The notes under the pieces were generated by a model. That model did not search any database and was not told where the DNA came from. It saw only the letters and a program-made list of their open reading frames with translations. The position numbers and the translations under genes are program-made. From Bryobacterales bacterium (GTDB taxonomy: Bacteria; Acidobacteriota; Terriglobia; Bryobacterales; UBA6623): DNA of 64,000 nucleotides. Location of the stretch: NCBI GenBank assembly GCA_963422375.2, contig OY729427.2, positions 6,430 to 70,429 on the forward strand. The letters run 5' to 3'. Below are positions 4,090 through 54,350 of this stretch, piece after piece. The stretch's first letter is position 1. Each line of letters starts with the position of its first letter.

Positions 4090-4119
4090 GGGTGTAACCT
4101 TTCGTCTCCGTCCCTCTCC

Positions 4120-5571: not shown

Positions 5572-5574
5572 TCC

Positions 5575-6443: not shown

Positions 6444-6763
6444 GACCGCTCCTCGGGCGGCGCGAACACGGGGTGCAAGCGCTCGAACTCCCGCCCGGTG
6501 AACGTCATCACCGCGCCCCGGGCGTCCCGCACGGCCATGCGCCCGACCCCGAACTCGACGATCCGGCAGTCCCGCAGGGCGGTGTGCGGCAGGCCCTCTA
6601 TCTCCAGCCGCTCGATGGCCGCTCCGACGCGCACCAGGGGGTCGGACGCCAGCCGGCGGTAAGCCCGCCGCCGCCGCCCGCCCTCGACGAAGGCCGCCGC
6701 CCCGAACGCCGCCAGCGGCGACAGGAACGCCAGCGCCAGGGCCGTGCACAACGCTTCGATCAT
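6440..6763 (-). CDS. N-terminally anchored protein of unknown function
   Basis: It begins MIEALCTALALAFLSPLAAFGAAAF (TM) and continues as a soluble domain. ATG 6763 lies 2 nt after the upstream stop. Confidence 0.5.
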   Translation of the reverse strand: MIEALCTALALAFLSPLAAFGAAAFVEGGRRRRAYRRLASDPLVRVGAAIERLEIEGLPHTALRDCRIVEFGVGRMAVRDARGAVMTFTGREFERLHPVFAPPEERS

Positions 6764-6765
6764 GG

Positions 6766-6981
6766 TCACTCGCAGTCCCCCCGGGCGCACTGCCAGGCCA
6801 AATGCAGCGCCAGCGCGCCGCACGACACGAACACCACCGCCGGCCCGATTTGGAACGCCAGCAAGGCCATCCGCTCTATCCGCTGCCCCAGCTCGTGCAC
6901 GTTCATCGCCCACAGGAACGCGAGCACGATCGAGGCGCAGCCCAGGGCCGCGAGCCCCAGCGTCTTCATCGGATTCTTCAT
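6766..6981 (-). CDS. Small membrane protein (signal/lipobox-like N-terminus, second TM)
   Basis: 71 aa: MKNPMKTLGLAALGCASIVLAFLW... followed by PAVVFVSCGALALHL. Confidence 0.5.
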   Translation of the reverse strand: MKNPMKTLGLAALGCASIVLAFLWAMNVHELGQRIERMALLAFQIGPAVVFVSCGALALHLAWQCARGDCE

Positions 6982-7000
6982 CGGATTCCCTTCCGGCCCG

Positions 7001-7540
7001 CTAGCGGCAGCCGCCCTCCCGGTACAGGGGCACGAGGCCCCCGACTTTCGCCGGGTAGGCGCGGTTCTCCGCGCAGGCCCAGGCGGCCCGGATGCAGTGC
7101 CGCTCGACGTGGCCCGTCCAGCGCCGCGGGTCGCAGCCCGGCTCGCGCCGGCAGCGCGACTTCTCGCGCCCGATCCAGCCCGGGCCGCCGTTGTAGGCCG
7201 CCCACGCGAACTCCCACCGGTCGCGGTCGAAGCGGTAGCGCGCCAGCAGCCGCCGCATGTAGACGATCTGGGCCCGGATCGCGCAGCCCGGGTCGGTCGG
7301 GTCCGCCCCGTCGCAGGGCGGGACCGTCAGCGGCGCGATGTCGCTCCACGTCGGCGGGGTGAACTGGGCCAGCCCGCTGGCGTAGCGCGAGCGCGCCCGC
7401 GGGCGCCACGACGACTCGCGGTGGATCTGCGCGGCCAGCTCGGCCCGCATCGCCGCCGCCCCGGCGCGGCCGAGCTCGGCCTCGAAGACCGGGGCCAGCT
7501 CGCACGGCACCGCCAGCAGGGCCGCGGCCAGCAGGAGCAT
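7001..7540 (-). CDS. Lytic transglycosylase (SLT domain), probable endolysin with N-terminal signal/SAR-like segment
   Basis: SLT motifs are present: ...QIHRESSW..., SGLAQFTPPTW, AWAAYNGGPGW. It starts at MLLLAAALLAVPC (ATG 7540), overlapping the upstream stop as TGATG. Confidence 0.8.
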   Translation of the reverse strand: MLLLAAALLAVPCELAPVFEAELGRAGAAAMRAELAAQIHRESSWRPRARSRYASGLAQFTPPTWSDIAPLTVPPCDGADPTDPGCAIRAQIVYMRRLLARYRFDRDRWEFAWAAYNGGPGWIGREKSRCRREPGCDPRRWTGHVERHCIRAAWACAENRAYPAKVGGLVPLYREGGCR

Positions 7541-7890
7541 CAGTACGCCCCGCCCCAGCCGAAGGCCAGCAGCGTCGCCCCGTACAGCAGGCACCAGCCC
7601 ACGATGTAGGCCGCCCGGGGCACGTCCTCCCCGTGCGGGCTGAACGGCGGCTCGCCGTGGATCACCCTCAAGATGTCGAACTCGGGGAAGAGCGCCCTCT
7701 TCATCCCGAGAAAGAACAGCGTGGCCCCGGCGCAGGTGAACGTCTTGCCCAGCCACGCCGCCAGGGCCCGCTCCAGCTCGCCGGGCCGCGGCCCGGCCAG
7801 CGCGTCCACCGCGCCCATGCCCGCCAGGGCCGTCGCGGCGAGCGCGAGGAAAATCAGCGCGTCTCTCACGGTTCCTCCTTCACGCGGCAA
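7540..7890 (-). CDS. 3-TM holin-like membrane protein
   Basis: 116 aa with three hydrophobic segments (ALIFLALAATALAGMGAV, TFTCAGATLFFLGM, AAYIVGWCLLYGATLLAFGW). It lies directly upstream of the SLT gene and is coupled to it. Confidence 0.55.
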   Translation of the reverse strand: MPREGGTVRDALIFLALAATALAGMGAVDALAGPRPGELERALAAWLGKTFTCAGATLFFLGMKRALFPEFDILRVIHGEPPFSPHGEDVPRAAYIVGWCLLYGATLLAFGWGGAY

Positions 7891-8437
7891 TCCGGCGGTA
7901 GGGGGCCAGCAGCGACCGCGCCGCGGCCGGCAGCCCGGGCCCCTCCCCGTCGGGATGCTCGTACAGGCTCCCCGCGATCAGCAGGACCGCCTGCAGCACG
8001 GGCGCGGGCACGTCCGCGGCCCGCGCGTAGCCCCCCCGGTAGGTCACCGCCACCGACCCCGGGGCGGGGGCCGCGGCCGGCCAGGCGCCGCCGGCCGGGG
8101 CGATCCGGCCGCGCGCCGCGTCCAGGCGGTACCCGTCCGCCGGCAGCTCGCGCTGGGCCCCGTCGGGGCCCAGGTACAGGACCGACTCCACCTCCGGCAC
8201 GGGCGGCCGCGGCAGTTGCGCGGGCCGCCCTCCCGGCGGGAAGCCGTCCAGCGTCAGCCGCATCCGCCGCGCCGACAGGCCCAGCCGGGCGAAGGACTCG
8301 GCCCGGGCCGCGGCGGCCGCGGCGATCAGCCGGACCGCCTCGTCCTCGCCCTCCCCCTCGATCCGCAGGTGGGCCTTGACCGCGTCGAGGCCCAGCGGCG
8401 GGCCGCCGGGATCGTCCAGCGCTTCCAGCGTCCGCAC
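7880..8437 (-). CDS. Phage gp6-like head-tail connector protein
   Basis: ...LGLDAVKAHLRIEGEGEDEAVRLIAAA... is the typical N-terminus of gp6-like/DNA-packaging connector proteins. It lies downstream of the capsid gene. Confidence 0.7.
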   Translation of the reverse strand: MRTLEALDDPGGPPLGLDAVKAHLRIEGEGEDEAVRLIAAAAAARAESFARLGLSARRMRLTLDGFPPGGRPAQLPRPPVPEVESVLYLGPDGAQRELPADGYRLDAARGRIAPAGGAWPAAAPAPGSVAVTYRGGYARAADVPAPVLQAVLLIAGSLYEHPDGEGPGLPAAARSLLAPYRRIAA

Positions 8438-8859
8438 TAGTGGTCCGCCGCCCGGACCGAGGCCAGCACCGTCGAGTGCCGGGGCGCCGGCTCGCGGCGC
8501 GGCCCGTACTGCAGCGCCACGACGCCGTCGAGCGTCGCGTTCGCGGTCTTGCGCTTGACCACGCAGCGCAGGTAGCGCCGCTGCGCGTAGCGCACGTCGA
8601 TCGTCACCAGCTTGTCGCTGCCGCCGTCCGGCACGGCCACCGCGGCCACCTCCTCCGCATCGCTCATGTCCGACTCGTCGCTGGCCACGACCTGCACGGC
8701 CGTGGCGCCGCCGTCGACGACGGTCCCGACGGCCGCCACGAACAGCGTGCCCTCGTAGTTGCTCGAGTCCACGGCCGTGCCGTCGGCGACGTCCGTCTTG
8801 CCGGCGGCCGCCGCGTTGCTGGTCCGCATCACGCGGACCCGGTCGATCAGGGCTCTCAT
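8437..8859 (-). CDS. Phage head-associated hypothetical protein
   Basis: A 140-aa ORF with normal composition, lying between the capsid and connector genes. Confidence 0.5.
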   Translation of the reverse strand: MRALIDRVRVMRTSNAAAAGKTDVADGTAVDSSNYEGTLFVAAVGTVVDGGATAVQVVASDESDMSDAEEVAAVAVPDGGSDKLVTIDVRYAQRRYLRCVVKRKTANATLDGVVALQYGPRREPAPRHSTVLASVRAADH

Positions 8860-8887
8860 GCTCCCCTCCTCTTTCCCCAGGCTGGCC

Positions 8888-10102
8888 CTAGGCCAGCTTC
8901 ACGCGGGCGAAGGCTTCCGCCAGCACCGGCATGCCGTCGGTGGCCGCCCGCAGGATCAGGCCGACCTGGTTGGTCTCGGCGTACAGCTCCTCCAGTCTCT
9001 TGACCTGCAGCCGCATGTCGTCGGCGACCCAGTAGTGCCGGAAATCGCCCAGGATGCCGACCGTCTCGCCCGAGACGAACTTGCGCGGAGCGAACTCCGA
9101 CTCGAAGAACGGCAGGCCGAGCAGGCGGTCCGGCTCGCCCTCGCGCACCGAGCCCGACCAGATGTAGCGCCCGTCCTTGTCCTTGATCTTGGCCAGCTTC
9201 TCGAGCGCGTCGCGATGGAAGATCCAGCGCGCCGCGCGCCGGTGCCCGCCCTTGAGGCTGAACTTCGCCCCGATCAGCCCGTCGAAGGTGATCTCGGTCG
9301 CCTTGTTGCCCTGGGCCACGTCGCGCGCGGCCGGGATGCCGTCGTCGGAGACGGCGAACACGCCCAGCGGCTGGTGCGCCCCGCTGCCGGCGAGGAAGGC
9401 CCGCTCCTGGGCCGCGGCCACCTTGTACTCGAGGCGCTGCCGCAGGATCGTCTCCACCGGCAGCACGGCCCGCCGCAGGATCTCGTTGCTCATGCGCACG
9501 CGCTTGGCCAGCGGGTGCGGGTGCAGCGAGCGCTTCCCGAAGCGGATGCCCTCGTCCTCGGAGCCCGTGCGCAGCTCGGTCGTCCAGTCCGGGTCGTCCG
9601 GGTCGCGGTCCAGCGTGGGCACGCCCAGGCTGTCGGCCCCGTTGACCTGGTAGATCGTGGCCCAGGCGCGCATCACGACGGCGTCGTCCAGGCCCTGGAT
9701 CAGGCTGGTCACGAAGCGCTCCGGGACCGTCAGGAAGCCGCCCTCGGCGGCGCTGCCCGCGGTCTGGCCGCGGAACTCGCGGGCCGCCTCGTCGTCGCGG
9801 GCCTCGCGGCCGCTGACGATCCACGCGCGGAACCCGTCCCGGACCAGCTCCTCGCGCGAGCGCCGCTCGCCGCCGCGGGCCGTCGGCGGCGGCTCCAGCG
9901 CGGCCATGTCGCGCTCGAGGTCGTCCTGCCGCCGGCGCCGCTCGATGCGGTCCTTCAGCGCCCCGGCCGCGGCCAGGGCCCGCTCGTAGGCCGCCCGCTC
10001 CTCGGCGCCGAGGTCGCGGTTCTCCTTCTCGGCGCGGTCCAGCACCGCCCTGGCGTCGGCCACGGCCTTCGCCCGCTGCTCCTGCAGCTCCCGAATCTCC
10101 AT
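8888..10102 (-). CDS. HK97-family major capsid protein (with N-terminal delta/scaffold-like coiled coil)
   Basis: 404 aa. It has a charged helical N-terminus (MEIRELQEQRAKAVADARAVLDRAEKE...) followed by ...GGFLTVPERFVTSLIQGL...AKRVRMSNEIL...DGRYIWSGS..., which is HK97 MCP-like. Confidence 0.9.
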   Translation of the reverse strand: MEIRELQEQRAKAVADARAVLDRAEKENRDLGAEERAAYERALAAAGALKDRIERRRRQDDLERDMAALEPPPTARGGERRSREELVRDGFRAWIVSGREARDDEAAREFRGQTAGSAAEGGFLTVPERFVTSLIQGLDDAVVMRAWATIYQVNGADSLGVPTLDRDPDDPDWTTELRTGSEDEGIRFGKRSLHPHPLAKRVRMSNEILRRAVLPVETILRQRLEYKVAAAQERAFLAGSGAHQPLGVFAVSDDGIPAARDVAQGNKATEITFDGLIGAKFSLKGGHRRAARWIFHRDALEKLAKIKDKDGRYIWSGSVREGEPDRLLGLPFFESEFAPRKFVSGETVGILGDFRHYWVADDMRLQVKRLEELYAETNQVGLILRAATDGMPVLAEAFARVKLA

Positions 10103-10145: not shown

Positions 10146-10706
10146 TCAGGCCCGGGCCTCCTCCAGCTCCAGGCGGCGCCTGGCCAGCGCGCGCCGCCAC
10201 GGCGCCCGCCGGGCTTCCAGCGAGCGCAGCGACACGTCCGTCTCGGCGTAGGCCGGGAACGTCACCACCGACACCTCGTAGAGCTTGACCTTGCGGAGCG
10301 TGCGCATCGCGACGCCGCTTTCCATGCCCCACGCCTCGTCGAGCACGGCGAAGCCGACGGACATGCCGCTGACGTCCCCGCGCCGCACCGACTCGATCAG
10401 GTCGCGGGCGTAGCCGGCGTCCGGCGGGTCGATCGTCGCCAGCAGCCCGCGCCCGTCCTCGGACAGGCGCAGCGTGCCGGCCCTGGTGCGCCCCAGCACG
10501 AGCCCCGGGTCGTGGTTCCGCAACGCCCGGATGTCGTCCCGCGCGAGCGTCTCCGCGAAGGCCCCCGCCTCGATCCGCTCGCGGAACATCCCCGCCACGT
10601 CCGCCTCGACCCCGAAGACCGCCGCGTGCCCTTCCAGGCGGGGCGGCCCGGCGCCGTCCCCGGCGCGCGCCTCCAGCCCGCTAGCCTCCAGCGCCCTGCG
10701 CTCCAT
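10146..10706 (-). CDS. HK97-family prohead protease
   Basis: ...LEGHAAVFGVEADV...FRERIEAGAFAETL...IRALRNHD...GMSVGF...EVSVVTFPAY... matches the prohead protease (S78/U35) pattern. Confidence 0.85.
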   Translation of the reverse strand: MERRALEASGLEARAGDGAGPPRLEGHAAVFGVEADVAGMFRERIEAGAFAETLARDDIRALRNHDPGLVLGRTRAGTLRLSEDGRGLLATIDPPDAGYARDLIESVRRGDVSGMSVGFAVLDEAWGMESGVAMRTLRKVKLYEVSVVTFPAYAETDVSLRSLEARRAPWRRALARRRLELEEARA

Positions 10707-11970
10707 CGCCGCCTCCCTCTTCCGCGCCCTCTTCCCGGCCGCCGGACCCGTCCAGCAGGTCCGCCATCGGCCGCATGTTCACCGGCGAGACGTACACGTC
10801 GCCTGCCGGCCCGATCGGATTGAGGCCCTCGCGGGCCCGCACGTCGTTGGGGCTCAGCCAGCCCCACTGGATGCCCCGCGCGCTGGCCTCGGTCCGCGCC
10901 CGCACGTCGCCCCGCAGCAGCTGCGAGAAATCGAAGCGCGCCTGCAGCGAGCCGCGGCTCGAGGGCGCGATCAGGTCGCGCTGGACGGCGTCCTCGATGC
11001 GCCGCGCCAGCGGGGCCAGCTTGTCGGTCACCCAGGCGCGGTTCTGCTGCTCCACGTTGTTCAGCGTGCTCTTCTCGAGCACCCCGATCTTGTACGGCGG
11101 GACGCGGAACAGCCGCGCGATCTCGAGGTCGGTGAAGCCGCGCAGCTCGATGTACTGCGCGTCGCCGTTGCTCATGCCGATGGCCTTGAATCGCAGGCCC
11201 GCCTCGAGCACCGCCACCCCGTGGCGCTGCTGGCCGGCGTAGGACTCCCTCCACTGCCGCTTGAATTCCTCCCGTCGCGACTCGTCCTCGAAGACCCCGT
11301 CGGTCTCGATCACCCCGGCCGGGCGCGAGTCGTTCGCGAACAGGCGCGCGCCGTACTCGCGCGCCGCCAGGGCCATGCCGACCGTCTCGCGGTGGATGCG
11401 GATCGGGGAGGAGCCCAGCAGGCCGTCGCCCTGCATCGGCCCCCTCACGTGGAAGATCTCGCCCGGCCACAGCGCGGACCGGCCGGCCTCCCCCTCCACG
11501 AGGTACAGCGGCCGCCGGCCGGGGGCCCGCTCGGACGGATCCCAGCGCACGTCCACCCGGTCGGGATGCAGCGGCTCCAGCCCGGCCGCCCGGCCGGCCC
11601 CGTCGCGCCGCACCACCGAGTAGTGGTTGCCTCTCAGCTCGAGATGCTCGACCACGCACTCCCAGAAATCGAAGGCCGTCTGCCACGCGTTGGGCGCCTC
11701 GAGCAGGACCCGGCGCAGCGGGTGCCCCAGGGCGTCCTCGCCGCGCTCGCGGCCGGCCTCGTCCCGCGCCACCCGCCGCAGGCGGCAGGGCATCTCGGCC
11801 AGCGTCTCGGCCGTGTTGCGCACGCAGGCGTAGACCGCGGTCGCTCCCAGCGCCTCCCGCTCGTCCACCGCCCGGCCCGCGGCCGTCGCGGCGGGCGCGC
11901 CCAGCAGGGAGGCCAGGGCCGGGTCGCGGGGATGCCGCCCCGCGCGGCGCTCCGCCAGGTGGCTCAGCAT
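10681..11970 (-). CDS. HK97-family phage portal protein
   Basis: 429 aa with ...AVYACVRNTAETLAEMPCRL..., ...VGMALAAREYGARLFANDSRPAGVI..., ...IARLFRVPPYKIG..., all portal-like. Its position between TerL and the protease supports the call. Confidence 0.9.
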   Translation of the reverse strand: MLSHLAERRAGRHPRDPALASLLGAPAATAAGRAVDEREALGATAVYACVRNTAETLAEMPCRLRRVARDEAGRERGEDALGHPLRRVLLEAPNAWQTAFDFWECVVEHLELRGNHYSVVRRDGAGRAAGLEPLHPDRVDVRWDPSERAPGRRPLYLVEGEAGRSALWPGEIFHVRGPMQGDGLLGSSPIRIHRETVGMALAAREYGARLFANDSRPAGVIETDGVFEDESRREEFKRQWRESYAGQQRHGVAVLEAGLRFKAIGMSNGDAQYIELRGFTDLEIARLFRVPPYKIGVLEKSTLNNVEQQNRAWVTDKLAPLARRIEDAVQRDLIAPSSRGSLQARFDFSQLLRGDVRARTEASARGIQWGWLSPNDVRAREGLNPIGPAGDVYVSPVNMRPMADLLDGSGGREEGAEEGGGDGAQGAGG

Positions 11971-11974
11971 CGGC

Positions 11975-12133
11975 TCAGCAGCGCTCCCGCAGCCGCCAGG
12001 CGTCGAGCATCAGCAGGGCCCCCAGGCACACCAGGGCCGCCGGCGGGCTCCACGACCACAGGCCCGCGCAGGCCGTCGCCGCCCCGGCCAGCGACTCGAC
12101 GGCCGCCGCCGTGCGCAGGCGCTCGCGCGTCAT
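11975..12133 (-). CDS. Small membrane protein between terminase and portal
   Basis: 52 aa: MTRERLRTAAAVESLAGAATACAGLWSWSPPAALVCLGALLMLDAW... Its ATG overlaps the TerL stop (ATGA). Confidence 0.4.
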   Translation of the reverse strand: MTRERLRTAAAVESLAGAATACAGLWSWSPPAALVCLGALLMLDAWRLRERC

Positions 12134-13683
12134 GCCACCGCCAGCCTCTCGAAGCGGATCTTCCGCGGGCCCCGGGGCAGGCGCGTGGCCGCCCCGAGGG
12201 CCTGCACCAGGGCCACCGCCCCGTCGATGCGCCCCGTCGCGCGACGCTTGTCGAAGCGCCGGTCGGCGGGCTCGAGGGAGCTGGGCACGCAGACCGCGTT
12301 GCCCGCGCACCACGTCAGCAGCGGGTTGCGCGCGACCCGCAGGCGGCCCTCGAGCAGGGCCGCCTCGGTCTCCTCGATCGAGCCCGGCATCCACATGCCC
12401 GTCTCGGAGGACTTGGCGAAGCCCTGCCCGTGCGGAGCCAGCGGCACGCGCTGCCCGATCCTGTCCAGCTCGTGCCGCAGCAGCTCGACCTTGTGCCGGT
12501 CGTAGGCGATCTCGCGCACGCGGTACAGCTCGCACAGGCCCGCCAGCTCGCGGGCCACGCGGGCGTAGTCGACCACCGGGCCCGGCGGCGCCCGCAGGAA
12601 GCCCTCGCGCCGCCAGGCGTCGTAGGGCGCCCCGTCGGTCTCGCAGGCCTCGGCCACGCGGTCGCCCGGCATCCAGTGCCAAGCGAACGCGTCCCAGCGC
12701 CGCGCGCCGGCCTCGAAGGCCAGCACCAGCGCCGTCAGATCCTTGGTCAGGGAGAGGTCCAGCCCGCCCCAGCACGGCCGGCCCGCGTAGCCCGCGAGGT
12801 CCAGGTCCGCCTGGGCGGAGCGCCACAGAGCCGCCGTCAGCCAGCTCTCGGCCTTGTCCGCGACGCGCTGGTTGAGGATCAGGTTGCGGTAGGCCGCCTC
12901 GCGGCTGGGCATGCGCCGGGCCCGCTCCGCGAGCTGCCGCACCTGGCCGGCCACGAGGAAGTCGCGGTAGGCCGGGCAGGCCTGCCGCATGGCCTTCGCG
13001 CCGAACGGGTCCAGTTCCGGATCGGCCGTCCACAGCGCCAGCACGGTATGCGGGTCGTGCCCGGCCGCGGCGTCGTCGATCAGCTGCGAGAGCAGGTCCT
13101 CGTCGCGCCGCGCCTGCGTCGAGATGATCACCGTGAGGGGCTCCTCGTGCGCCCCGACGGCCGTCTCGAGGGCGTCGTAGAGCTCCGACCGCGGCCCGCG
13201 CACCTGGCCCAGCTCGTCGTGCACGACGAACGTCGGGCTGATGCCGTAGGACGTCCTCGCCTCCGCCGAGAGGGCCCGGTAGACCGTGCCCAGCTCGGGG
13301 CAGAGCAGCTGCTTGGCCGTCTCGCGGGCGCGCACGTGGCCCGCCAGGTCCGGCGAGAGCCGCACCATCTTCGCGGCCAGCCCGTACAGCAGGGCGGCCT
13401 GGTCCCGCGACTGGGCCGCCGAGTAGAGCTGCGCGTTGGGCCGGGCCTCGGGCCCGGCCAGGTGCAGCAGGAGCAGGCAGGCCAGCAGGGTGGTCTTGCC
13501 GTTCTTGCGGCCCATCGACACGATCGCCGTGCGCGTGCCGGCGGCGTTGTCGTAGATCAGGCGCAGGATGCGGCGCTGGAACGGCCGCAGCTTCAGCGCG
13601 CGGCCCACGTCCCGGCCCTCGGGCACGCGGCAGTAGCGCTCGATCCAGCGGGCGTTGCGCGTCGAGCGCTTCAGCACTCCCAC
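12130..13683 (-). CDS. Phage terminase large subunit (Terminase_1-like)
   Basis: ...RYCRVPEGRDVGRALKLRPFQRRILRLIYDN...AIVSMGRKNGKTTLLA (Walker A)... The start is set at GTG 13683 or 13677, overlapping the TerS end. The N-terminus of the track ORF (to 13980) is R-rich overlap with TerS. Confidence 0.85.
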   Translation of the reverse strand: MGVLKRSTRNARWIERYCRVPEGRDVGRALKLRPFQRRILRLIYDNAAGTRTAIVSMGRKNGKTTLLACLLLLHLAGPEARPNAQLYSAAQSRDQAALLYGLAAKMVRLSPDLAGHVRARETAKQLLCPELGTVYRALSAEARTSYGISPTFVVHDELGQVRGPRSELYDALETAVGAHEEPLTVIISTQARRDEDLLSQLIDDAAAGHDPHTVLALWTADPELDPFGAKAMRQACPAYRDFLVAGQVRQLAERARRMPSREAAYRNLILNQRVADKAESWLTAALWRSAQADLDLAGYAGRPCWGGLDLSLTKDLTALVLAFEAGARRWDAFAWHWMPGDRVAEACETDGAPYDAWRREGFLRAPPGPVVDYARVARELAGLCELYRVREIAYDRHKVELLRHELDRIGQRVPLAPHGQGFAKSSETGMWMPGSIEETEAALLEGRLRVARNPLLTWCAGNAVCVPSSLEPADRRFDKRRATGRIDGAVALVQALGAATRLPRGPRKIRFERLAVA

Positions 13684-14099
13684 GGCTTGCTCCCGCGCGC
13701 GACGGCCGGATTGCCGCGCTGGTTGATCGTGGCCTGCTGCGAGATGCGCATCTTCGTGGCCAGGCTGGCCACGGCCCGCGTCTCGCGCTCGCGCAGGCGC
13801 AGCAGGCGCTCGTACTCGTCGAGGCTCGCGCCCCCGCCTCCGAGGCCCTCGCTCTCGGCCAGCGCGATCCACGCCGCGATGCGCCGCGCCGAGGCCACGT
13901 GGCCGCAGTACTGCTCCAGCAGCGCGATCGACGGGCCCGAGAACCACTCCGCGGGCATGCCGTCGACCACCTCGGCCCACGCGGCCCGCTCGGACGCGCT
14001 CAGCCGCTCCGGGGGCGGCTGGCGCTCGAGCACCTGGATCGCGCCCGCGTCGGGCGCGGGGAGCCGGGCCGCCGGCTTGCGGCCGCGCTGGTTGTCCAA
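13671..14099 (-). CDS. Phage terminase small subunit (P27-family-like)
   Basis: 142 aa: ...LSASERAAWAEVVDGMPAEWFSGPSIALLEQYCGHVASARR... It lies directly upstream of TerL. Confidence 0.75.
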   Translation of the reverse strand: MDNQRGRKPAARLPAPDAGAIQVLERQPPPERLSASERAAWAEVVDGMPAEWFSGPSIALLEQYCGHVASARRIAAWIALAESEGLGGGGASLDEYERLLRLRERETRAVASLATKMRISQQATINQRGNPAVARGSKPWEC

Positions 14100-14109
14100 T
14101 GCGAAATTC

Positions 14110-14526
14110 CTACGCTTTAGCGATTTTTTTCGCCCGAATCCGGTCTCGGGGCGGGCGGGCGGGGTTTTCGCCCCCCCTACCCCCCTGCCGGTTGGCCGGG
14201 TGCCGCGGGTCCGCCGGCCAGCCGTCCGGACCCGGCCCGGCCGCGTAGCCGCGGCGCTCCTCGCGCTGCTTGCGCGAGTCGTGGCACGGCCGGCACAGCG
14301 GCTGCCAGTTGGCCGGGTCCCAGAACAGGGCCCGGTCGCCCCGGTGGGGCCGCACGTGATCGACCACCGCGGCCGCCCGCGCGCGCCCCGCCCGCGCGCA
14401 CGGCCGGCACAGCGGATGCAGGCGCAGGTAGCCGGCGCGGGCCAGGCGCCAGCGGTGCCCGTAGCCCCGGCTCGCCGACGAGCCGCGCCGGCCCGGGCGC
14501 TCCCCGGCCGGCTTCCGCGACAGCAT
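14110..14526 (-). CDS. HNH endonuclease (phage, terminase-associated)
   Basis: RGYGHRWRLARAGYLRLHPLCRPC...VVDHVRPHRGD...NWQPLCRPCHDSRK is the HNH ββα-metal motif. Confidence 0.85.
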   Translation of the reverse strand: MLSRKPAGERPGRRGSSASRGYGHRWRLARAGYLRLHPLCRPCARAGRARAAAVVDHVRPHRGDRALFWDPANWQPLCRPCHDSRKQREERRGYAAGPGPDGWPADPRHPANRQGGRGGENPARPPRDRIRAKKIAKA

Positions 14527-15837: not shown

Positions 15838-16539
15838 TTCGATCCGAACTACACCTATGCATGGAACTGGGCGCACTTCCGGGGCGACATGACCTGCTGC
15901 ACCGGTGGCAACGATCCCCAGACCGTCTGGAGTCCCTCGCGCGCCCAGGTTTACGACATGAAGCTGAACCGCTCGCCGACCCGCTACCACATCCGCCATC
16001 GATTCACAACGGACTTCCACTACGAGATCGCGGTCCCCGGCGGGGTTTCCGGCGCCGCCCGCCACGTTCTGGGCGGCTGGAGCCTCGCAGGGATCTTCGA
16101 GGCGAGAACCGGCACGCCGCTGCGGATCACGCAGGGCGGCACGCAGTCGCCGGGCCAGCGTCCCGACATCGTGGCAAGCAGCCACGGCGCCGCCATCCTG
16201 CCCGGATACCGGAACTCCCGGGACGGACGTTACCAGTACCTTGACAGGGGCGCCTTCAGCCTCGTGGAGACGGACGAGTACCGCATCGCGCTGCGGCCGG
16301 GCACCCTCGCGCGCTACGCCATCTACGGCCCCGGCCTGTGGAATCTGGATGCGGCGATCGTCAAGAGGATCGAGGTCGGCGAGTCCCAGCGGCTCCAGTT
16401 CCGGATCGACCTGCTCAACGCACTCAATCACACGGTGCTCGGCGGCATCCAGACCAACTCCGCCTCGGGCACGTTCGGACGGCTCCGCAGCTCGCTCGAC
16501 GGCCGTAAGATGCAGCTAACGGCGCGCTACGAGTTCTAG
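15838..16539 (+). pseudogene. 3' fragment (~last 230 codons) of a TonB-dependent receptor gene
   Basis: ...FDPNYTYAWNW...HVLGGWSLAGIFEARTGTPLRITQGG...YGPGLWNLDAAIVKRIEVGESQRLQFRIDLLNALNHT...GRKMQLTARYEF* is colinear with the C-terminus of the intact receptor at 26396..29758. The frame is closed by TAA at 15778, and no plug or N-terminal part lies upstream. Confidence 0.75.
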
Positions 16540-16847: not shown

Positions 16848-17795
16848 ATGAATCGGCGCGCTCGCCCCAAGATCTCGTTCGCCGCCGCGACGCTGCTCGC
16901 GACCGCCTCTTTCGCCGGGACCGCTGCGGCGCAGGGCTACCGGATCGAGACCCTGCTTGGGGACTTCAACCCTTCGGAGGAAGTCGCCCCTGCAAGCGCC
17001 TGGACAATCCGACCGACCTCGATCACCTGCGACTCCGCCGACAACGTCTACTTCGTCGAGAGCGGCACGCACCGCGTTCGGAAGGTCAACCATGCCGGGC
17101 GGGTCAGCACGGTCGCCGCCAACGGGCTTTCCGGGTTCAGCGGAGACGGCGGTCCGACCCGTGGAACGACCGGGTTTGCAAGATCGATGCCGGAGGAACC
17201 ATCACAACCATTGCCGGAGCGGGCGAGGAGGGTGCCGGCCGCGACGTAGGACCGGCCGTAGCGGCCCAGCTCGAACGGCCTCAAGACCTAGCAATCGACC
17301 AGTCCGGGAACCTCTACATCGCGGATACCGCAATTCATCGATACCGCAATTCATCGCCTCCGACGGGCGGCCCCCGGGGCGTAATCGCGACTATCGCCGG
17401 CAGCGGCGAGGAGGGCTTCAGCGGCGACGGAGGCCCCGCCACCGATGCCGAGTTGAACGAGCCCAGCGGAGTGGCAGTCGGTTCGGACAGCAACGTCTAC
17501 ATCTTCGACATGCCGAACAGGGTCGTCCGCAGGGTGGATCCGGCGGGCACGATCACAACCGTCGCCGGTGACCTGCGAGGTCACGGCCTGGTGCGCAGCC
17601 CGGCGACCTCCTTCTTCTTGCCGTTCCCGAGCGCAGTTGCGACGGGCCCGCGGGGCGGGCTACGAGGGAGTCGACTAGCTCATCCTCGGCCCGTTGCCCC
17701 GCAGGGTCCCTCGCACGGTGGTCGGCTCGGAACTCACGATTGTCGCAACCGTCGACGGCCAGGTGTCCAACGCGGTGACGATCACCCTGGGCTAG
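16848..17795 (+). pseudogene. NHL-repeat beta-propeller protein with Soli_cterm-like tail, broken by several frameshifts
   Basis: The signal peptide is MNRRARPKISFAAATLLATASFAGTAAAQ. NHL units (DNVYFVESGTHRVRKV, GFSGDGGP, GNLYIADTAIHR, SNVYIFDMPNRVVRRVDPAGTITTVAG) are spread over three frames. The C-terminal ...ELTIVATVDGQVSNAVTITLG* is in yet another frame. Confidence 0.65.
17325..17356. repeat. Perfect 16-bp tandem duplication (ATACCGCAATTCATCG x2) inside the NHL gene
   Basis: Read directly from the sequence at 17325..17340 and 17341..17356. The length is not a multiple of 3. Confidence 0.9.
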
Positions 17796-18053: not shown

Positions 18054-20846
18054 TCAAGGTACTCTTACCCAGATGGGACTCGACCAAGCCATCTGTCCGT
18101 CGGCCTGCTGCACGCGCACGTAGTAATGCCGGTCTCCCGACGGCGGCTCCTGGTCCGCGAAGGTGAATTGCAGGTCGTCGCCCTGATTCTGCAGGGTGTA
18201 AACGAAATCCTGCCCGCGGATCACGTCAACCTGCCTGACCGGCGCGGTCCCTAGGATCCTCACCCTCAACTCGAACTCGCTGTGGCTTCCCGGAACCTCG
18301 TCGCCTTGGATGTACTCCCTGCCCCCGGCGCGCATGCGGTAGTCCAGCACGATGTTGTCGGTGGCCGCGTAGTTGTGCCGTCGGCGCATCGCGTCGAGTA
18401 GCCCTTCGCGGGTGAACTCCTCGGCGATCGTGCAGGAGTAGGAGATGTGCGTAGAGAGGTGGTCCGAACTGGCCTGTACGCCAATCCGGTACCCCTTGGC
18501 CCAGGCGTTCCAGACGTAGCCCTTGGGACGGAAGCCACCGGCTTGGTTCGTCACGTCCAGTTCCGTCGCGGCCTTGGGAGCGCCTTCGTATTCCGCGGAC
18601 ACCCGGTCGCCTTGGTAGATCTCGACCAACGGCTCCACCTCCGGGTCGTTGTCCCGCCAGTCCGTTCCCATGCCTGTCGCCGGAGTGTGCGGGATGGAAA
18701 TCCCGTCGTAGCGCTTGAGATATTCGAACAGGCCCGCTTGGGCCGTAGAGGTCTCTCGCTCGCCCGGCTGGTCGGGGAAGGTCGGGTTGCCGCGATTGGC
18801 GAAGAAGACGTTGCGGTGCCCGTTGGGATAGCCGACGCCGCGCTCGTACCCGAACAGCGGCACGAACCGGCCCGGCACGTGGAACACGTCGACCCGCTGC
18901 TGCAGCAGCCAGTTGATGTACTCGATGTTCGGACCGCCGCTGTTATGGTGCTCGCTCATGCCGAGGTAGTCGAGCTCGGCCACGTTCAGGGCGTAGCGGT
19001 AGGTGTCGTTCTGCGCGCCGTCGTTGTTGCCGTCCCCCGAGTACTCCGTGTGCCGGTGCGTGTCGCCCCGGTAAATCCTATACGTTCTGCCCTCCGATTC
19101 GATAGCGTAGCCGCGGATGCGCGCCACGTCCTCGCTCTCGTTGGGATGCTTGTCGAAAATCCGCAGTTCGTCGCGGATCCTCGCCTTGAGCTCGGCGGGA
19201 AACACCGGAGTCTCCAGTGTCGGCAGGCGCGAGGCAAAGACCTCACCCTGCTCGTAGAAGTACTGGTCGTAGATGCGGTTGTCCGTGCTCCAGGCGGCGT
19301 ATAGAGATCCGTCCGGCGCGGCGGAGAACCCGAAGCCGGCGTCCGAGCGCCCGGCGGTGGCCGGCAGCGGAAACGGAGTGCTCCATCCGCGGCCGTCGAA
19401 GGCCGTGGCGTACGTCTCCCACGAAGCGCGGTGGGACGCGGCGGTGTGCGGAACTTCCCTTTGCCGGAGGTGGCGATGCCGAAACAGCGCCCAGACGCGC
19501 CCGGCGCCGTCGGTCCGCAGGCGCGGAAAGTCGTTGAAGCCCCGCAGGTCGGCCGGCAGCGATTCCTCGAAGCCGCGCCTCGTCTCACGCCACTCGCCGG
19601 CGTCGTAGACCGCAGTCGCGACCCGCCTGGACTGGTAGAGCTGGGTGGCCGGCCGGTTCAGCAGGAATCCCGTGTCCTTGCCCCATTGCAGCCCGCTCTC
19701 GTTCCAAGCCGCCCAGAGCCGGTCCTCGGAATCGCACGTCAGGGACGGGTAGGCCTCGTAGCGCAGCGTGTCGGCGACGGGCTCGACCTCGGACCAGCGC
19801 CCGGCGGAGTGCCTGCGCATGCGGATGTCGAAATCGTCGTTTTCGTAGGTCTCCCACGCCACGTACACCGCGCCCTTGGAGTCGGCGGCGACTGCCGGGT
19901 GCCAGTCGTCGGCAGGCGACAGCGAAACGCGCGCCTCGGGCGACCAGGACGCGCCGTCCCAGGTCCGGGCCAGAATGTCGGACCGGCCTTCCCGGAACCC
20001 CTGCCAGACCAGCCAGACCCTGCCCGCCGCGTCCGCGGCCAGCGCGTGGTGGACATCGGGCTGCGGCGCGTCGGTGAGCCGCTCCCCGCGCGACCAAGAG
20101 CTCCCGTCGAAGACCGAAGCGAAGAGATCGAAGTTCCCGTCGCGCCGGTCCGCCCAGACCGCGAGCGGGCTCCCCTGCCCGTCGAGAGCCAGGCGCACGT
20201 AGTAGGCGTCCGACGGGCCGGAGGTTACTTCGTGCGTCTCGCCCCAGGCCTTCCCGTCGTGCCGCCGGGCGAAGACGCGATTGGCCCAGTCCCTGTAGCC
20301 GATCCAAGCGACCCAGAAGGCTCCGCCGCCCTCGGCCGCGATGTCGGCGAAGCCGTTGTGGTAGGACTGATCCGAAACGGACGAGTAGCTGGCCGCCCGC
20401 TCCACGACCGCCGCCCCGCCGAGGTAGCCGCGCCGCGCGCCCGGAGGCTGGTCCGAGATCCGGAAGGACAGGTTTCCCGTGGCCGTCTGGATGTCGACGC
20501 GGGCATCGCCTGCGGATTCCACGGAAAGGACCAGGCCCGGAACGTTGAGATATGCAGGCACGGGGGCGGGCGGCTCGGGTTCCCAGTTGCGGTACCGGAA
20601 CTTGACTCCGGGCGCGGTCGAGAGCTTCCAGGACGTCTCGCCGATCTCGTCCGCCGCGCGCGGCCGCCAGCTGCGCAGCCCCGCCAGCCGCCCCCCTGCC
20701 ACGGTGACGGAGCCGTCCCATGCCGTGGGTTCGCGGTCGGTGAGGCCGAACCGGACCCGGAAGGCATGGAGTTCCGCGGAGGCGACGGAAGCCGCGCACG
20801 CGGCGAGAGCCGCGAGGGCGGCAAGGAGTCTTCGGCAGGCCGGCAT
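18054..20846 (-). CDS. Secreted beta-propeller (BNR/sialidase-like repeats) fused to a PHP/DUF3604-like metallohydrolase domain
   Basis: It starts at MPACRRLLAALAALAACAASVASA (ATG 20846). The N-terminal half has repeated ...W.AW....DG.W...  units. The C-terminal part has RGDTHRHTEYSGDG, LGMSEHHNSGG, GYERGVGYPNGHRNVFF, IPHTPATG and SSDHLSTHISY, which are His/Asp metal-ligand motifs. Confidence 0.7.
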   Translation of the reverse strand: MPACRRLLAALAALAACAASVASAELHAFRVRFGLTDREPTAWDGSVTVAGGRLAGLRSWRPRAADEIGETSWKLSTAPGVKFRYRNWEPEPPAPVPAYLNVPGLVLSVESAGDARVDIQTATGNLSFRISDQPPGARRGYLGGAAVVERAASYSSVSDQSYHNGFADIAAEGGGAFWVAWIGYRDWANRVFARRHDGKAWGETHEVTSGPSDAYYVRLALDGQGSPLAVWADRRDGNFDLFASVFDGSSWSRGERLTDAPQPDVHHALAADAAGRVWLVWQGFREGRSDILARTWDGASWSPEARVSLSPADDWHPAVAADSKGAVYVAWETYENDDFDIRMRRHSAGRWSEVEPVADTLRYEAYPSLTCDSEDRLWAAWNESGLQWGKDTGFLLNRPATQLYQSRRVATAVYDAGEWRETRRGFEESLPADLRGFNDFPRLRTDGAGRVWALFRHRHLRQREVPHTAASHRASWETYATAFDGRGWSTPFPLPATAGRSDAGFGFSAAPDGSLYAAWSTDNRIYDQYFYEQGEVFASRLPTLETPVFPAELKARIRDELRIFDKHPNESEDVARIRGYAIESEGRTYRIYRGDTHRHTEYSGDGNNDGAQNDTYRYALNVAELDYLGMSEHHNSGGPNIEYINWLLQQRVDVFHVPGRFVPLFGYERGVGYPNGHRNVFFANRGNPTFPDQPGERETSTAQAGLFEYLKRYDGISIPHTPATGMGTDWRDNDPEVEPLVEIYQGDRVSAEYEGAPKAATELDVTNQAGGFRPKGYVWNAWAKGYRIGVQASSDHLSTHISYSCTIAEEFTREGLLDAMRRRHNYAATDNIVLDYRMRAGGREYIQGDEVPGSHSEFELRVRILGTAPVRQVDVIRGQDFVYTLQNQGDDLQFTFADQEPPSGDRHYYVRVQQADGQMAWSSPIWVRVP

Positions 20847-21013
20847 GCCAACAAGGTTAGAACGCCCGGCGGAGCGTCTCAAGCGCGGGGGCGGCGGCCC
20901 GCGGGCGCCCGAGGCGGCTGGGACCCGGGCGCGCGGCATCCGGACAGCTGACCCGCCTATCCTGTGTTGTGGTGCCGGAGCGCCTTCGCGGCCGTTCGCA
21001 CGGCGAGACGCCC

Positions 21014-23104
21014 ATGGACAGAACGCAGGCTGAGCGGCTCTTGCACGCGGCCGTCGGCAGGTCGGACGCAACGTTCCGGGACGGCCAGTGGGAGGCGATC
21101 GACGCGCTCGCCAACGACCGGGCCAGGCTGTTGGTCGTGGAACGGACCGGCTGGGGCAAGAGCTCGGTCTACTTCATCGCCACGCGGATCCTGCGCGATC
21201 AAGGCTCGGGCCCCACGCTGATCGTGTCGCCCCTGCTGGCGCTGATGCGCAACCAGATCGACGCGGCCGAGCGCCTGCGCATCCGTGCAGCCACGATCAA
21301 TTCCTCGAACAGGGACGCGTGGGACTCCGTCAAGCAGCGCATCCTCGCCGACCGGGTGGACGCACTGCTGATCTCCCCGGAGCGCCTTTCCAACGAGTCC
21401 TTCGTCGAGACGGTCCTGATGCCGATCGCCGGCCGCATCGGCCTGCTGGTGGTCGACGAAGTCCACTGCATCTCCGACTGGGGCCACGACTTCCGCCCCG
21501 ACTACCAGCGGCTGATCAACGTGTTGCGGCAGCTGCCGCCGAACCTGCCGGTGCTCGGCACGACCGCCACGGCCAGCAACCGGGTAATTGCCGACGTCAG
21601 CCGCCAGCTCGGGGACATCCGGGTCCAGAGAGGGCCGCTCGTCCGGGACAGCCTGTCGCTCCAGACGCTGAGCCTTCCGGGCCAGGCCTCGCGCCTGGCG
21701 TGGCTCGCCCAGCGCGTACCGGAGTTGCCCGGCACCGGCATCGTCTACACCCTCACGACCAGCGACGCGAGGCAGGTGGCCGGCTGGCTGTCCCAGCAGG
21801 GGATCGACGCGAAGGCCTACTACTCGAACGTCGAGGGCGAGGGCTTCGAGGACAGCAGCACTTACCGCCAGCACCTCGAGGACCAGCTTCTCGGCAACGA
21901 GCTCAAGGCCCTCGTCGCCACGACCGCGCTCGGCATGGGCTACGACAAGCCCGACGTCGGCTTCGTGATTCACTACCAGGTTCCCGGATCCATCGTCGGG
22001 TACTACCAGCAGGTCGGCCGGGCCGGCCGCGCCGTCGACCGGGCGTTCGGCGTGCTGCTGTCGGGGAGGGAGGACGGGCAGATCGTCGAGCACTTCCGGA
22101 CCACGGCGTTCCCGCCGGAAGCGGACGTGGAAAAGATCCTCGGCGCTCTCGAGGACAGCGACGGCCTGTCGGTCCGGGAGCTGCAGGCGCAGGTGAACCT
22201 CCGCCAGGGCCAGGTCCAGAAGGTCCTCAAGATCCTCAGCGTCGAGAGCCCCGCCCCGGTCCTCAAGCGCAAGACCAAGTGGCAGCGCACGCCGGTGCGC
22301 TACGCGATGGACACGGAGCGGATCCGGCGCCTGACCGGCCAGCGAGAGCTGGAGTGGCGGGAAATCCAGGACTACGTGCGCACGGACGGTTGCCTGATGG
22401 CGTACCTGCGACGCGCCCTGGACGACCCGGAGTCGCCGGACTGCGGCCGCTGCGCCAACTGCCTGGGCCGGCCTGTCGTCGACGCGACGGTCGACCGGGG
22501 ACTGACCGCCAGCGCGGCGCGCTTCCTGCGACGGGCCGAGCGCGCGTTCTCGCCCAACAAGCAGGTCCACCAAGACGCGTTCCCGCAGTACGGCTTCCGG
22601 GGAAACCTGCGCCCGGAAGTCCGCTCGTCGGACGGCCGGACGCTCTCGGCATGGAAGGACGCCGGATGGGGCGCCATGGTAGCCAAGCACAGGCTGGCCG
22701 GCCGCTACGGCGACGAGCTCGTCGCGGCAACGGCCGAGATGATTCGCGAGCGCTGGAGACCGAGCCCGAAGCCGGAGTGGGTGACCTGCGTGCCTTCGCT
22801 GAGGAATCCCGATCTCGTCCCGGATTTCGCGAAGCGCCTCGCCGGGCGCATCGGGCTCCCGTTCCGGGCCGCCGTCCGCAAGATCGCGGACAACGAGCCC
22901 CAGCGGGAGCAGCGCAACAGCTTCCACCAATGCCGGAACCTCGACGGCGCGTTCGGGATCTCGGACCGGATCAGGGCGACGCCTGTTCTGCTGGTCGACG
23001 ACTTGGTCGGCTCCGGCTGGACCCTCACTATCGTGGCCGCCCTGCTGAGGCGGGCGGGCAGCGGGCCGGTGCATCCTGTGGCGCTTGCCTCGATCGTCAG
23101 ATAG
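21014..23104 (+). CDS. RecQ-family DNA helicase fused to a C-terminal ComF/GntX-type phosphoribosyltransferase-like domain
   Basis: RecQ motifs are present: ERTGWGKSSVYF, VVDEVHCISDWGHDFRPDY, GTTATAS, ATTALGMGYDKPDVGFVIHY, QQVGRAGRA and the Zn module CLMAYL..PDCGRCANC. The C-terminal ~170 aa (WVTCVPSLRNPDLVPDFAKRLA...NLDGAFGISDRIRATPVLLVDDLVGSGWTLT) carry a PRPP-loop. Confidence 0.85.
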   Translation: MDRTQAERLLHAAVGRSDATFRDGQWEAIDALANDRARLLVVERTGWGKSSVYFIATRILRDQGSGPTLIVSPLLALMRNQIDAAERLRIRAATINSSNRDAWDSVKQRILADRVDALLISPERLSNESFVETVLMPIAGRIGLLVVDEVHCISDWGHDFRPDYQRLINVLRQLPPNLPVLGTTATASNRVIADVSRQLGDIRVQRGPLVRDSLSLQTLSLPGQASRLAWLAQRVPELPGTGIVYTLTTSDARQVAGWLSQQGIDAKAYYSNVEGEGFEDSSTYRQHLEDQLLGNELKALVATTALGMGYDKPDVGFVIHYQVPGSIVGYYQQVGRAGRAVDRAFGVLLSGREDGQIVEHFRTTAFPPEADVEKILGALEDSDGLSVRELQAQVNLRQGQVQKVLKILSVESPAPVLKRKTKWQRTPVRYAMDTERIRRLTGQRELEWREIQDYVRTDGCLMAYLRRALDDPESPDCGRCANCLGRPVVDATVDRGLTASAARFLRRAERAFSPNKQVHQDAFPQYGFRGNLRPEVRSSDGRTLSAWKDAGWGAMVAKHRLAGRYGDELVAATAEMIRERWRPSPKPEWVTCVPSLRNPDLVPDFAKRLAGRIGLPFRAAVRKIADNEPQREQRNSFHQCRNLDGAFGISDRIRATPVLLVDDLVGSGWTLTIVAALLRRAGSGPVHPVALASIVR

Positions 23105-23109
23105 GCCGC

Positions 23110-24078
23110 ATGACCGTCTCGGAGGGCACGCAGGCCATCCTGCTGCTGACGGCGCGCTTCGCGGACTGGCGGGGCGACAGCCCCGACCCGCTGACTCCCG
23201 CCGAGTGGGGCCGATTCGCGGCGTGGCTCAAGGTCCGCCGGTTGCAGCCGGCCGACCTGCTGGGCGGGCCCCCGTCCGACCTGTTGGAGGGCTGGTCCGA
23301 CAGCCGGGTCACGATCCCCAGGGTTGAGCGGCTGCTGGCGCGCGGTCCGGCGCTGGCGCTCGCGATGGACCGGTGGCTCGGCTCCGGCCTGTGGGTGATG
23401 ACGCGGGCCGACCCCGCTTACCCCAGCCGTCTCAAGACGCGCCTCGGACGGAATTCCCCGCCCGTCCTATTCGGCTGCGGGAACCGGGAATTGCCGGACG
23501 CCGGGGGGATCGCGGTCGTGGGATCGCCCGACGCGCCTCCGGCAGACCGCGCCTACTCGCGGGAGGTGGGAGTCGGCGCCGCACGGCAGGGGCATGCCGT
23601 CATCTCGGGAGGAGCGCGGGGCGTCGACGAGGCCGCGATGCTAGGCGCGCTGGAGTCCGGGGGCACCGCAGTGGGAGTCGTGGCGAACGGGCTTCTGGGA
23701 CGGTGCTCCAGCGCGAGCTACCGCCGGCACCTCATCGCGGGCGACCTGGCGCTCGTGTCGGCTACCCATCCGGAGGCGCGACTCCTTGCTTCCAACGCGT
23801 TGCAGCGGAACCACTACATCTACTGCCTCGCGGACGCGGCGGTCGCGGTTCGCTCGGCAACCGCGGGCGGGACGTGGAACAGCGCAGTCGAGAACCTTAG
23901 GAGGGGCTGGGTCCCCCTGTGGGTCAAGCCGACGGAGGACGCGGCGCCGGGCAACGCCGCGCTGGCCGGCCTGGGAGCGAGGTGGGCGCCGCTCCAAGCC
24001 GCCGACATCCGCATGGAGGAGCTGTGCGAGCGGGCCGCGCTCCCGCATACGCCCACCCTGTTTCCCGAGCTGGCATAG
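23110..24078 (+). CDS. DprA/Smf-like DNA-processing (SLOG/Rossmann) protein
   Basis: The ATG lies 5 nt after the RecQ-fusion stop. Motifs: ...YPSRLKTRLGRNSPPVLFGCGN...GIAVVGSPDAPPADRAYSREVGVGAARQGHAVISGGARGVDEAAMLGALESGGTAVGVVANGL... Only the last 322 aa of track ORF 21088..24078 are real. Confidence 0.8.
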   Translation: MTVSEGTQAILLLTARFADWRGDSPDPLTPAEWGRFAAWLKVRRLQPADLLGGPPSDLLEGWSDSRVTIPRVERLLARGPALALAMDRWLGSGLWVMTRADPAYPSRLKTRLGRNSPPVLFGCGNRELPDAGGIAVVGSPDAPPADRAYSREVGVGAARQGHAVISGGARGVDEAAMLGALESGGTAVGVVANGLLGRCSSASYRRHLIAGDLALVSATHPEARLLASNALQRNHYIYCLADAAVAVRSATAGGTWNSAVENLRRGWVPLWVKPTEDAAPGNAALAGLGARWAPLQAADIRMEELCERAALPHTPTLFPELA

Positions 24079-54307: not shown

Positions 54308-54350
54308 GAAGTCGCATGAACCGAGGCCGACCACAGCGACCGAGTCGCGC

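Follow-up and report, generated by a model that had tools for sequence, protein, structure and literature searches.

We report here the identification, in a 64,000-nucleotide stretch of a Bryobacterales genome (contig OY729427.2; the whole stretch is referred to below as the window), of two adjacent open reading frames (ORFs) that, on the strength of sequence comparison, very probably form a two-gene PsyrTA operon. This system, also known as RqlHI, is an accessory module of the toxin-antitoxin type; it is widespread, is listed among the anti-phage defences and has models in both PADLOC and DefenseFinder. The first gene, psyrT or rqlH (ORF1, 21014..23104, forward strand, 696 amino acids), is the predicted toxin gene and the second, psyrA or rqlI (ORF2, 23110..24078, forward strand, 322 amino acids), would encode a DprA/SLOG-like antitoxin. 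The pair is an ordinary copy of a system that has already been named and catalogued, and its recognition is a correct observation rather than a discovery: the fusion of helicase and phosphoribosyltransferase (PRTase)-like domain was described in 2012, its toxin-antitoxin behaviour in 2015 and its role in phage defence in 2022. The novelty implied in a preliminary description of this locus is not supported. The present work addresses membership of the family, architecture, synteny and whether the pair is accessory. For toxicity, its neutralisation, binding between the two proteins and defence against phage, the demonstrations come from homologues studied elsewhere.

Ordonez, Unciuleac and Shuman (2012, PMC3378886) characterised the RqlH protein of Mycobacterium smegmatis as a RecQ-like ATPase with an RqlH-specific linker and a tetracysteine zinc domain, in which a ComF/PRTase-like C-terminal domain replaces the HRDC domain, and which has 3'-5' translocase and helicase activity. 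M. smegmatis is without a classical RecQ, and RqlH was proposed to serve there in repair as an alternative helicase of the RecQ type. Russell and Mulvey (2015, PMC4670107) reported a genotoxic effect of Escherichia coli RqlH when RqlI, the DprA-like protein encoded downstream, is missing, mapped this toxicity to the PRTase domain, where D663 is required, and found that the helicase (residues K49 and D148) and RqlI each restrain RqlH. The two proteins interact, as judged by co-precipitation, and their genes form an operon; rqlH always precedes rqlI where both occur, and Gram-positive bacteria mostly carry rqlH alone (PMC4670107). Millman et al. (2022) included PsyrTA, which is the same system as RqlHI, among defence systems, found that it defends against phage and noted that it resembles ShosTA in pairing a PRTase toxin with a DprA-like antitoxin. 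The ShosTA toxin, which combines a PRTase with a pyrophosphatase, perturbs purine metabolism, and ShosA binds DNA. Our search of the literature for a newer paper on the PsyrTA mechanism found nothing relevant, and the papers found on PsyrTA gave no definition of the PRTase acceptor or of the phage trigger.

The preliminary description had suggested a PADLOC search of both proteins, and this assigned ORF1 to PsyrT and ORF2 to PsyrA. The PsyrT model (PDLC03928) matches ORF1 with an E-value of 8.1e-291 (964 bits) over residues 3-693 and model positions 5-683 of 689, while the PsyrA model (PDLC03927) matches ORF2 at 1.1e-120 (401 bits) over residues 1-309 and model positions 1-309 of 398, leaving the final ~90 positions of the model, its C-terminal domain, unmatched. 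When the C-terminal domain of ORF1 is searched by itself, PADLOC returns PsyrT at 6.1e-65, followed by ShosT at 0.0021 and a retron PRTase at 0.05. ORF1 aligns without gaps to an E. coli homologue (62% identity over 693 amino acids) and ORF2 is 48% identical to the partner of that homologue. The likeness to PsyrTA/RqlHI of E. coli F11 extends to gene order, strand and a tight junction between the genes, to a colinear toxin composed of a RecQ-like ATPase, a Cys4 module and a PRTase-like C-terminal domain, and to an antitoxin with an N-terminal region and a DprA/SLOG core. The present copy differs in its short psyrA, which is without the linker and winged-helix domain, in a glycine at residue 666 of psyrT in place of aspartate, and in its acidobacterial host, where the surrounding genes are those of secreted enzymes as against a restriction-modification (R-M) operon or an integrase island.

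ORF1 runs from an ATG at 21014 to a TAG at 23102-23104, and this start matches the N-termini of 12 homologues in an alignment of the family (alignment A1); an upstream GTG at 20969 is a possible other start that is without homologue support. The ATG of ORF2, at 23110, lies exactly 5 nucleotides past the stop codon of ORF1 on the same strand, so that the toxin gene comes first. The third-position GC content of ORF1 is 0.92, as in other real genes of the window, in which GC content ranges from 66 to 75%. Upstream, the region 20847..21013 separates psyrT from a divergent DUF3604 gene, as delimited by the gene calls of a second assembly of the locus, and is presumed from its position only to hold the promoter of the operon.

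In ORF1 a RecQ-like superfamily 2 helicase is followed by a Cys4 zinc module and then by a PRTase-like domain, the complete RecQ core and the three motifs by which it had first been recognised (GWGKS, DEVH and QQVGRAGR), together with the Cys4 module, all being present. The helicase core, comprising RecA-like lobes 1 and 2, covers amino acids 23-340 (21080..22033, forward strand); it is matched by the Pfam families DEAD (1.4e-21) and Helicase_C (1.1e-10) and, as the best match to ORF1 in the structural database, by the RecQ catalytic cores in the PDB (1e-49). Its motifs, a Walker A GWGKS including K49, DEVH at 148-151, TTAT beginning at T183 and QQVGRAGR at 332-339, consist of residues that are invariant in alignment A1. 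The tetracysteine zinc-binding module (22391..22462, forward strand) is formed by C460, C477, C480 and C483, which are read from the translation and are likewise invariant in A1; Pfam RecQ_Zn_bind matches the single ORF1 sequence at 1.7e-3, under its gathering score. Residues K49, D148, D663 and the four cysteines carry the same numbering as the residues mutated in E. coli RqlH, and K49, D148 and D663 are all invariant in A1.

The C-terminal domain (amino acids 509-696; 22538..23101, forward strand) is PRTase-like, or ComF-like, and takes the place of an HRDC domain, for which Pfam gave no match in ORF1, as the preliminary description had proposed. Because the Pfam family Pribosyltran matches the single ORF1 sequence below its gathering score (6.8e-4), the assignment was tested at the level of the family, where it holds as judged by profile comparison: Pribosyltran matches 24 of 27 homologous C-terminal domains with a best E-value of 7.5e-9, and a profile of the domain family aligns over the phosphoribosyl pyrophosphate (PRPP) loop with the PDB entries for PRPP synthetase (1e-5), PurF (amidophosphoribosyltransferase) and hypoxanthine-guanine phosphoribosyltransferase (HGPRT). 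The PRPP-binding loop itself, VLLVDDLVGSGWT, occupies amino acids 658-670 (22985..23023, forward strand) in the translation and contains the conserved D662 and D663. An AlphaFold2 model of full-length PsyrT, built with a 13-sequence alignment, was poor (predicted local distance difference test, pLDDT, 62; predicted template modelling score, pTM, 0.34) and was set aside; a Foldseek search with it returned RecQ cores only and was uninformative on the PRTase domain or on domain packing. There was no solved structure of PsyrT or PsyrA among the PDB entries searched.

ORF2 has, as was originally described, a Rossmann/SLOG core of the DprA type (amino acids 93-287; 23386..23970, forward strand), which is matched by the Pfam families DNA_processg_A (2.2e-32) and SLOG cluster4 (LDcluster4, 2.1e-8) and, among PDB entries, by DprA (6.8e-7) and ShosA (1.6e-5). 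Its motif SGGAxGxD (residues 166-173) is invariant in alignment A3. The protein is a short form of the antitoxin, of 322 as compared with 400-480 amino acids, and is without the C-terminal linker and winged-helix/helix-turn-helix (HTH) domain; long PsyrA homologues continue through a variable linker into a conserved domain of ~70 amino acids with weak winged-helix matches. The lengths of 68 antitoxins are bimodal, 19-20 of them (~29%) stopping where ORF2 stops and 48 running 85-162 amino acids further. Since only 66 bp separate the psyrA stop codon from the convergent neighbouring gene, the short form is not the product of a frameshift. The C-terminal HTH of E. coli RqlI is dispensable, residues 1-320 neutralising fully (PMC4670107), and because 19-20 of the 68 homologues are also without it, the winged-helix/HTH domain is not a defining feature.

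More than 8000 homologues of PsyrT were found, of which the closest are only ~70% identical to ORF1 and come from Gammaproteobacteria and Gemmatimonadota. In a scan of one genome per species there were at least 596 PsyrT loci, and 80 of these, spanning more than 15 phyla, were fetched. The conservation of the gene pair across phyla, which the preliminary description had left to be checked, is borne out by these loci: a PsyrA homologue begins 14-363 nucleotides after PsyrT in 73 of the 80. Of the seven remaining loci, three extend for less than 900 bp downstream, and two (L040 and L051), both from Actinomycetota, have the full 8 kb downstream and yet no PsyrA, in agreement with the reported rqlH-only state of Gram-positives. 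Related pairs are present in 1678 of 5426 complete E. coli genomes (~31%), where the only annotation that they receive is 'RecQ family ATP-dependent DNA helicase' and 'DNA-processing protein DprA'. E. coli ST131 (NZ_CP051609.1; locus L082, positions 1-9487 of that locus) has a PsyrTA-like pair (710 and 462 amino acids) between hsdS and hsdR, inserted in a type I R-M operon with all genes on one strand, and in another E. coli strain the pair shares an island with a SLATT-domain gene and an integrase. PsyrT was found on 12 plasmids. Plasmid-borne actinobacterial homologues are ~40-45% identical, and full-length homologues (H25-H27, 45% identical) on plasmids of Halanaeroarchaeum and Halomicrobium extend the family to the archaea. 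Phage records contained no full-length PsyrT, the matches being to the helicase core only.

The pair lies, as the preliminary description had it, between genes for unrelated secreted enzymes. The flanking genes encode a DUF3604 protein (18054-20846, reverse strand, its start at 20846 being taken from the second assembly), a GSDH-cadherin protein and a CarboxypepD_reg/TonB-type outer-membrane protein (OMP), all of them coding for enzymes that are secreted or in the outer membrane. The DUF3604 gene has orthologues, 76-83% identical, with Bryobacterales and Acidobacteriota names, which point to a host that probably belongs to the Acidobacteriota. One acidobacterial relative (L086/L087) has an orthologue of the OMP gene (85%) 131 bp upstream of its DUF3604 orthologue (80%) and in another relative (L085) ~2 kb separates the two orthologues; PsyrT, PsyrA and the GSDH gene are missing, over 10 kb around the locus, from every relative examined. 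The window thus contains an insertion of ~5.5 kb, comprising the GSDH-cadherin gene, psyrA and psyrT, between neighbours that are conserved elsewhere, and psyrTA is therefore accessory. The flanks were searched for the direct or inverted repeats expected of a mobile cassette, with no meaningful outcome, and no integrase was found either. At the DUF3604 locus of the closest relative (L084, 1-13900) there are DruA and fragments of an MmeI-type R-M system broken by transposases, and a SoFic-like Fic gene directly follows the DUF3604 orthologue; this content suggests that the neighbourhood is a variable region accepting defence genes.

Several other families were considered and rejected. ORF1 is not a canonical RecQ, as it scores 250 bits against the TIGR01389 cut-off of 640 and 190 against the NF008279 cut-off of 1015, in addition to having no HRDC match; the sole RecQ model that it passes in NCBIfam is a RecQ-family subfamily model (224.5 bits against 219.8). 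ORF2 is equally far from canonical DprA (TIGR00732, 69.8 bits against a cut-off of 191; NF008007, 47.5 against 495), and the ComF/GntX competence proteins are excluded by scores of 18.2 bits against 233.6 (TIGR00201) and 20.9 against 304 (NF008616). The equivalog scores, all far below their cut-offs, uphold the earlier statement that the pair is neither a housekeeping recQ nor a comF/dprA locus. What psyrTA has in common with housekeeping RecQ and DprA and with ComFA/ComFC is a RecQ core with its zinc module, a DprA Rossmann core and a ComF-like PRTase fold; it differs in being without HRDC, in being accessory and in having no conserved position. DpdF was also rejected (NF041063, 149 bits against a cut-off of 550), the PADLOC matches to DpdF being much weaker than that to PsyrT, and no dpd-like genes were found around psyrTA. 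Two short PADLOC models labelled DpdF, PDLC02869 (8.5e-26) and PDLC02866 (1.1e-13), match only the C-terminal domain of PsyrT (22481-23101); these models may derive from PsyrT-like fragments and could lead to mislabelling as DpdF.

Membership of ShosTA was rejected because the N-terminus of ORF1 is a RecQ helicase and the ShosT model matches only ~50 residues over the PRPP loop; the ShosA model matches ORF2 at 4.5e-19 (67 bits; residues 96-261, model positions 81-247 of 303), far more weakly than the PsyrA model with its 401 bits. ShosTA resembles PsyrTA in its PRTase toxin, which needs the aspartates of the PRPP loop, in its DprA-like antitoxin, and in the features of filamentation, DNA-replication phenotypes and phage defence. 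It differs in that the N-terminus of ShosT is a pyrophosphatase-like hydrolase, as against the helicase of PsyrT, and in that ShosT and ShosA do not bind one another (type IV), whereas RqlH and RqlI co-precipitate. RqlH of M. smegmatis has a domain plan identical to that of ORF1, again without HRDC, and differs in that its gene stands alone, without a DprA-like partner, and in having been studied as a repair-type helicase. The preliminary description had offered two functions for the pair, a Shosta-like defence or toxin-antitoxin system and a processor of single-stranded DNA (ssDNA) or recombination intermediates; the PADLOC assignments and the literature favour the former, and the latter is the less supported of the two.

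By analogy with the characterised homologues, PsyrT would be a 3'-5' RecQ-like DNA helicase whose toxic part is the C-terminal PRTase-like domain. When unrestrained in E. coli, PsyrT/RqlH brings about DNA stress and SOS induction, and the cells filament and lose viability. In the present copy psyrT and psyrA are likely to be co-transcribed and, given the 5-nucleotide gap, are probably translationally coupled, and PsyrA would be expected to bind PsyrT and neutralise it, as does its E. coli counterpart. Infection by a phage might then upset this balance, either through loss of the antitoxin or through engagement of the helicase with phage DNA or replication intermediates, and the PRTase activity so freed may act on an acceptor, possibly a nucleobase or DNA itself. 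Such activity could stall DNA replication in the infected cell, leading to abortive infection or growth arrest.

One residue of the PRPP loop sets ORF1 apart. Residue 666 is glycine (codon GGC, 23009-23011), where the family residue is aspartate: 115 of 116 close homologues and 72 of 79 genomic loci have Asp, whereas Gly occurs in 1 of the 116, which is ORF1 itself, and at 2 of the 79 diverse loci (L017, from Acidobacteria, and L065). The position is the last of the DIVD block that was mutated in E. coli. The remaining invariant residues of both families are all kept in ORF1 and ORF2, and G666 is a peculiarity that gives no ground for excluding ORF1 from PsyrTA. Among type I PRTases the equivalent position is Asp in HGPRT and PRPP synthetase and Ala, Thr or Ile in the adenine and orotate enzymes (APRT and OPRT); as APRT and OPRT manage without Asp at this position of the loop, Gly need not abolish PRPP binding. 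It is conceivable, but distinctly unlikely, that the combination of G666 with a short, HTH-less antitoxin, which is found here and in the Acidobacteria metagenome-assembled genome L017, marks a functionally shifted branch of PsyrTA. Such a branch could, for example, have an altered acceptor chemistry, or could bind PRPP without transfer, in which case the helicase-PRTase protein would serve for sensing or regulation and would not be a toxin. A broader reading, of a RecQ motor that guides DNA-directed phosphoribosylation, may also be entertained.

Several observations weigh against the PsyrTA reading. The substitution of Gly for a near-invariant Asp at 666 could mean that the toxin is attenuated; a search for a sigma-70 consensus promoter and for a terminator consensus around the pair found neither; defence genes are not densely clustered in the immediate surroundings of the pair in the window; and a native-host study, which also used overexpression, detected no protection by one E. 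coli PsyrTA against the phages that it tested, so that defence by PsyrTA is not universal. Within the 64-kb window, a search for a further recQ or dprA gave none.

The alternative that carries most weight, though it remains improbable, is that the copy is decaying or attenuated, with a toxin weakened by the D666G change and an antitoxin whose C-terminus was lost under relaxed selection, such that the module may be inactive. It draws on the rarity of Gly at 666, on the ~90-160 C-terminal residues that ORF2 lacks and ~70% of homologues possess, and on the frameshift and deletion in neighbouring genes of the window assembly. Against this, ORF1 and ORF2 are intact, the third-position GC of ORF1 is that of a real gene and the other invariant residues are kept; short antitoxins are a recurrent natural class, E. 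coli RqlI cut at residue 320 neutralises fully and removal of the C-terminus of ShosA left neutralisation of its toxin unimpaired; and the neighbouring lesions resemble assembly differences, the corresponding genes being intact in the second assembly (L081), with psyrTA identical. A different explanation would make the pair a DNA-maintenance module, in which RqlH would serve in repair as an alternative RecQ-type helicase, with its DprA-like partner loading or protecting ssDNA intermediates, and toxicity in E. coli would be a by-product of imbalance in a cooperative repair machine. In its favour are the genuine 3'-5' helicase activity of RqlH in M. smegmatis, which has no classical RecQ, the cooperative, beneficial function on DNA that Russell and Mulvey proposed (PMC4670107), the occurrence of RqlH without RqlI in many bacteria (also at L040 and L051) and the finding that ShosA counters ShosT through DNA binding and repair and not by binding the toxin. 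We nevertheless consider it a rather poor candidate: the pair is absent from the same locus in the closest relatives and patchy across phyla, plasmids included; ~31% of complete E. coli genomes carry it, within R-M operons and islands with an integrase; neither protein comes near the NCBIfam equivalog cut-off for recQ or dprA; and a homologous system protects against phage.

Least credible of all is a competence-type module for ssDNA uptake, in which a fused analogue of ComFA and ComFC would act with DprA on incoming DNA, and which we regard as very unlikely. The domains are analogous, the C-terminal domain has weak matches to GntX/ComF models (2e-4 and 1.9e-3), and the ComFA/ComFC/DprA analogy drawn in the preliminary description is indeed discussed in the RqlH literature; it was, though, already present in the 2015 paper (PMC4670107), and the ComF and dprA models are missed, with scores far under their cut-offs. 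The helicase is moreover of the RecQ type and not of the ComFA type, and no competence or pilus genes are present among the window ORFs scanned with Pfam and PHROGs, in line with the earlier remark that no competence genes lie nearby. Natural transformation was undetected in the extraintestinal pathogenic E. coli (ExPEC) isolates of Russell and Mulvey (PMC4670107).

The second public assembly of the locus (L081) is 99.9% identical to the window and has an intact 723-amino-acid GSDH-cadherin gene and a 292-amino-acid NHL-repeat gene. In the window a 1-nucleotide deletion at 25907 frameshifts the GSDH gene and a 235-bp segment of the NHL gene is missing (~17155); these discrepancies are probably assembly or strain differences. 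The region of the NHL-repeat gene also contains, at 17324-17355, a perfect 16-nucleotide tandem duplication (GATACCGCAATTCATC, twice).

From position 1 to ~15100 the window consists of a block of 75% GC (the remainder being 62-72%), with all genes on the reverse strand and an HK97-type phage head-packaging module, and this block is a prophage or phage-derived element. Its genes include those for an HNH protein (14110-14526), the large terminase (12130-13980), the portal (10681-11970), a protease (10146-10706), the major head protein (8888-10102) and an adaptor (7880-8437), all on the reverse strand. The packaging end lies ~6 kb from psyrT, and no integrase was seen in the window. A tRNA-Arg(CCT) gene within the block (6686-6758, reverse strand) is either phage-borne or the remnant of an attachment site. 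Adjoining the end of the block, an ORF on the forward strand (15889-16539) encodes no more of a TonB-type OMP barrel than its last ~190 residues (profile positions 646-838 of 838); the ORF may represent a gene that was truncated or a scar left by integration. Elsewhere in the window, a region of low GC content (62%) at 50000-54400 contains a C-5 cytosine DNA methylase (51825-52778, Pfam 5e-39), with adjoining ORFs, for example 53186-54307, that have no Pfam match, and may be an R-M island; a putative restriction endonuclease of the Uma2 family is encoded at 44940-45866 on the reverse strand (Pfam 1.9e-17).

The public annotation of such pairs as a RecQ helicase and DprA hides a toxin-antitoxin or defence module, and the recognition of the pair reported here matters little beyond correct annotation. 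The psyrTA operon of this bacterium adds a host from the Acidobacteriota and a clear case in which an insertion separates conserved neighbours; its two natural variants, the short antitoxin and G666, could help to dissect the PsyrTA family.

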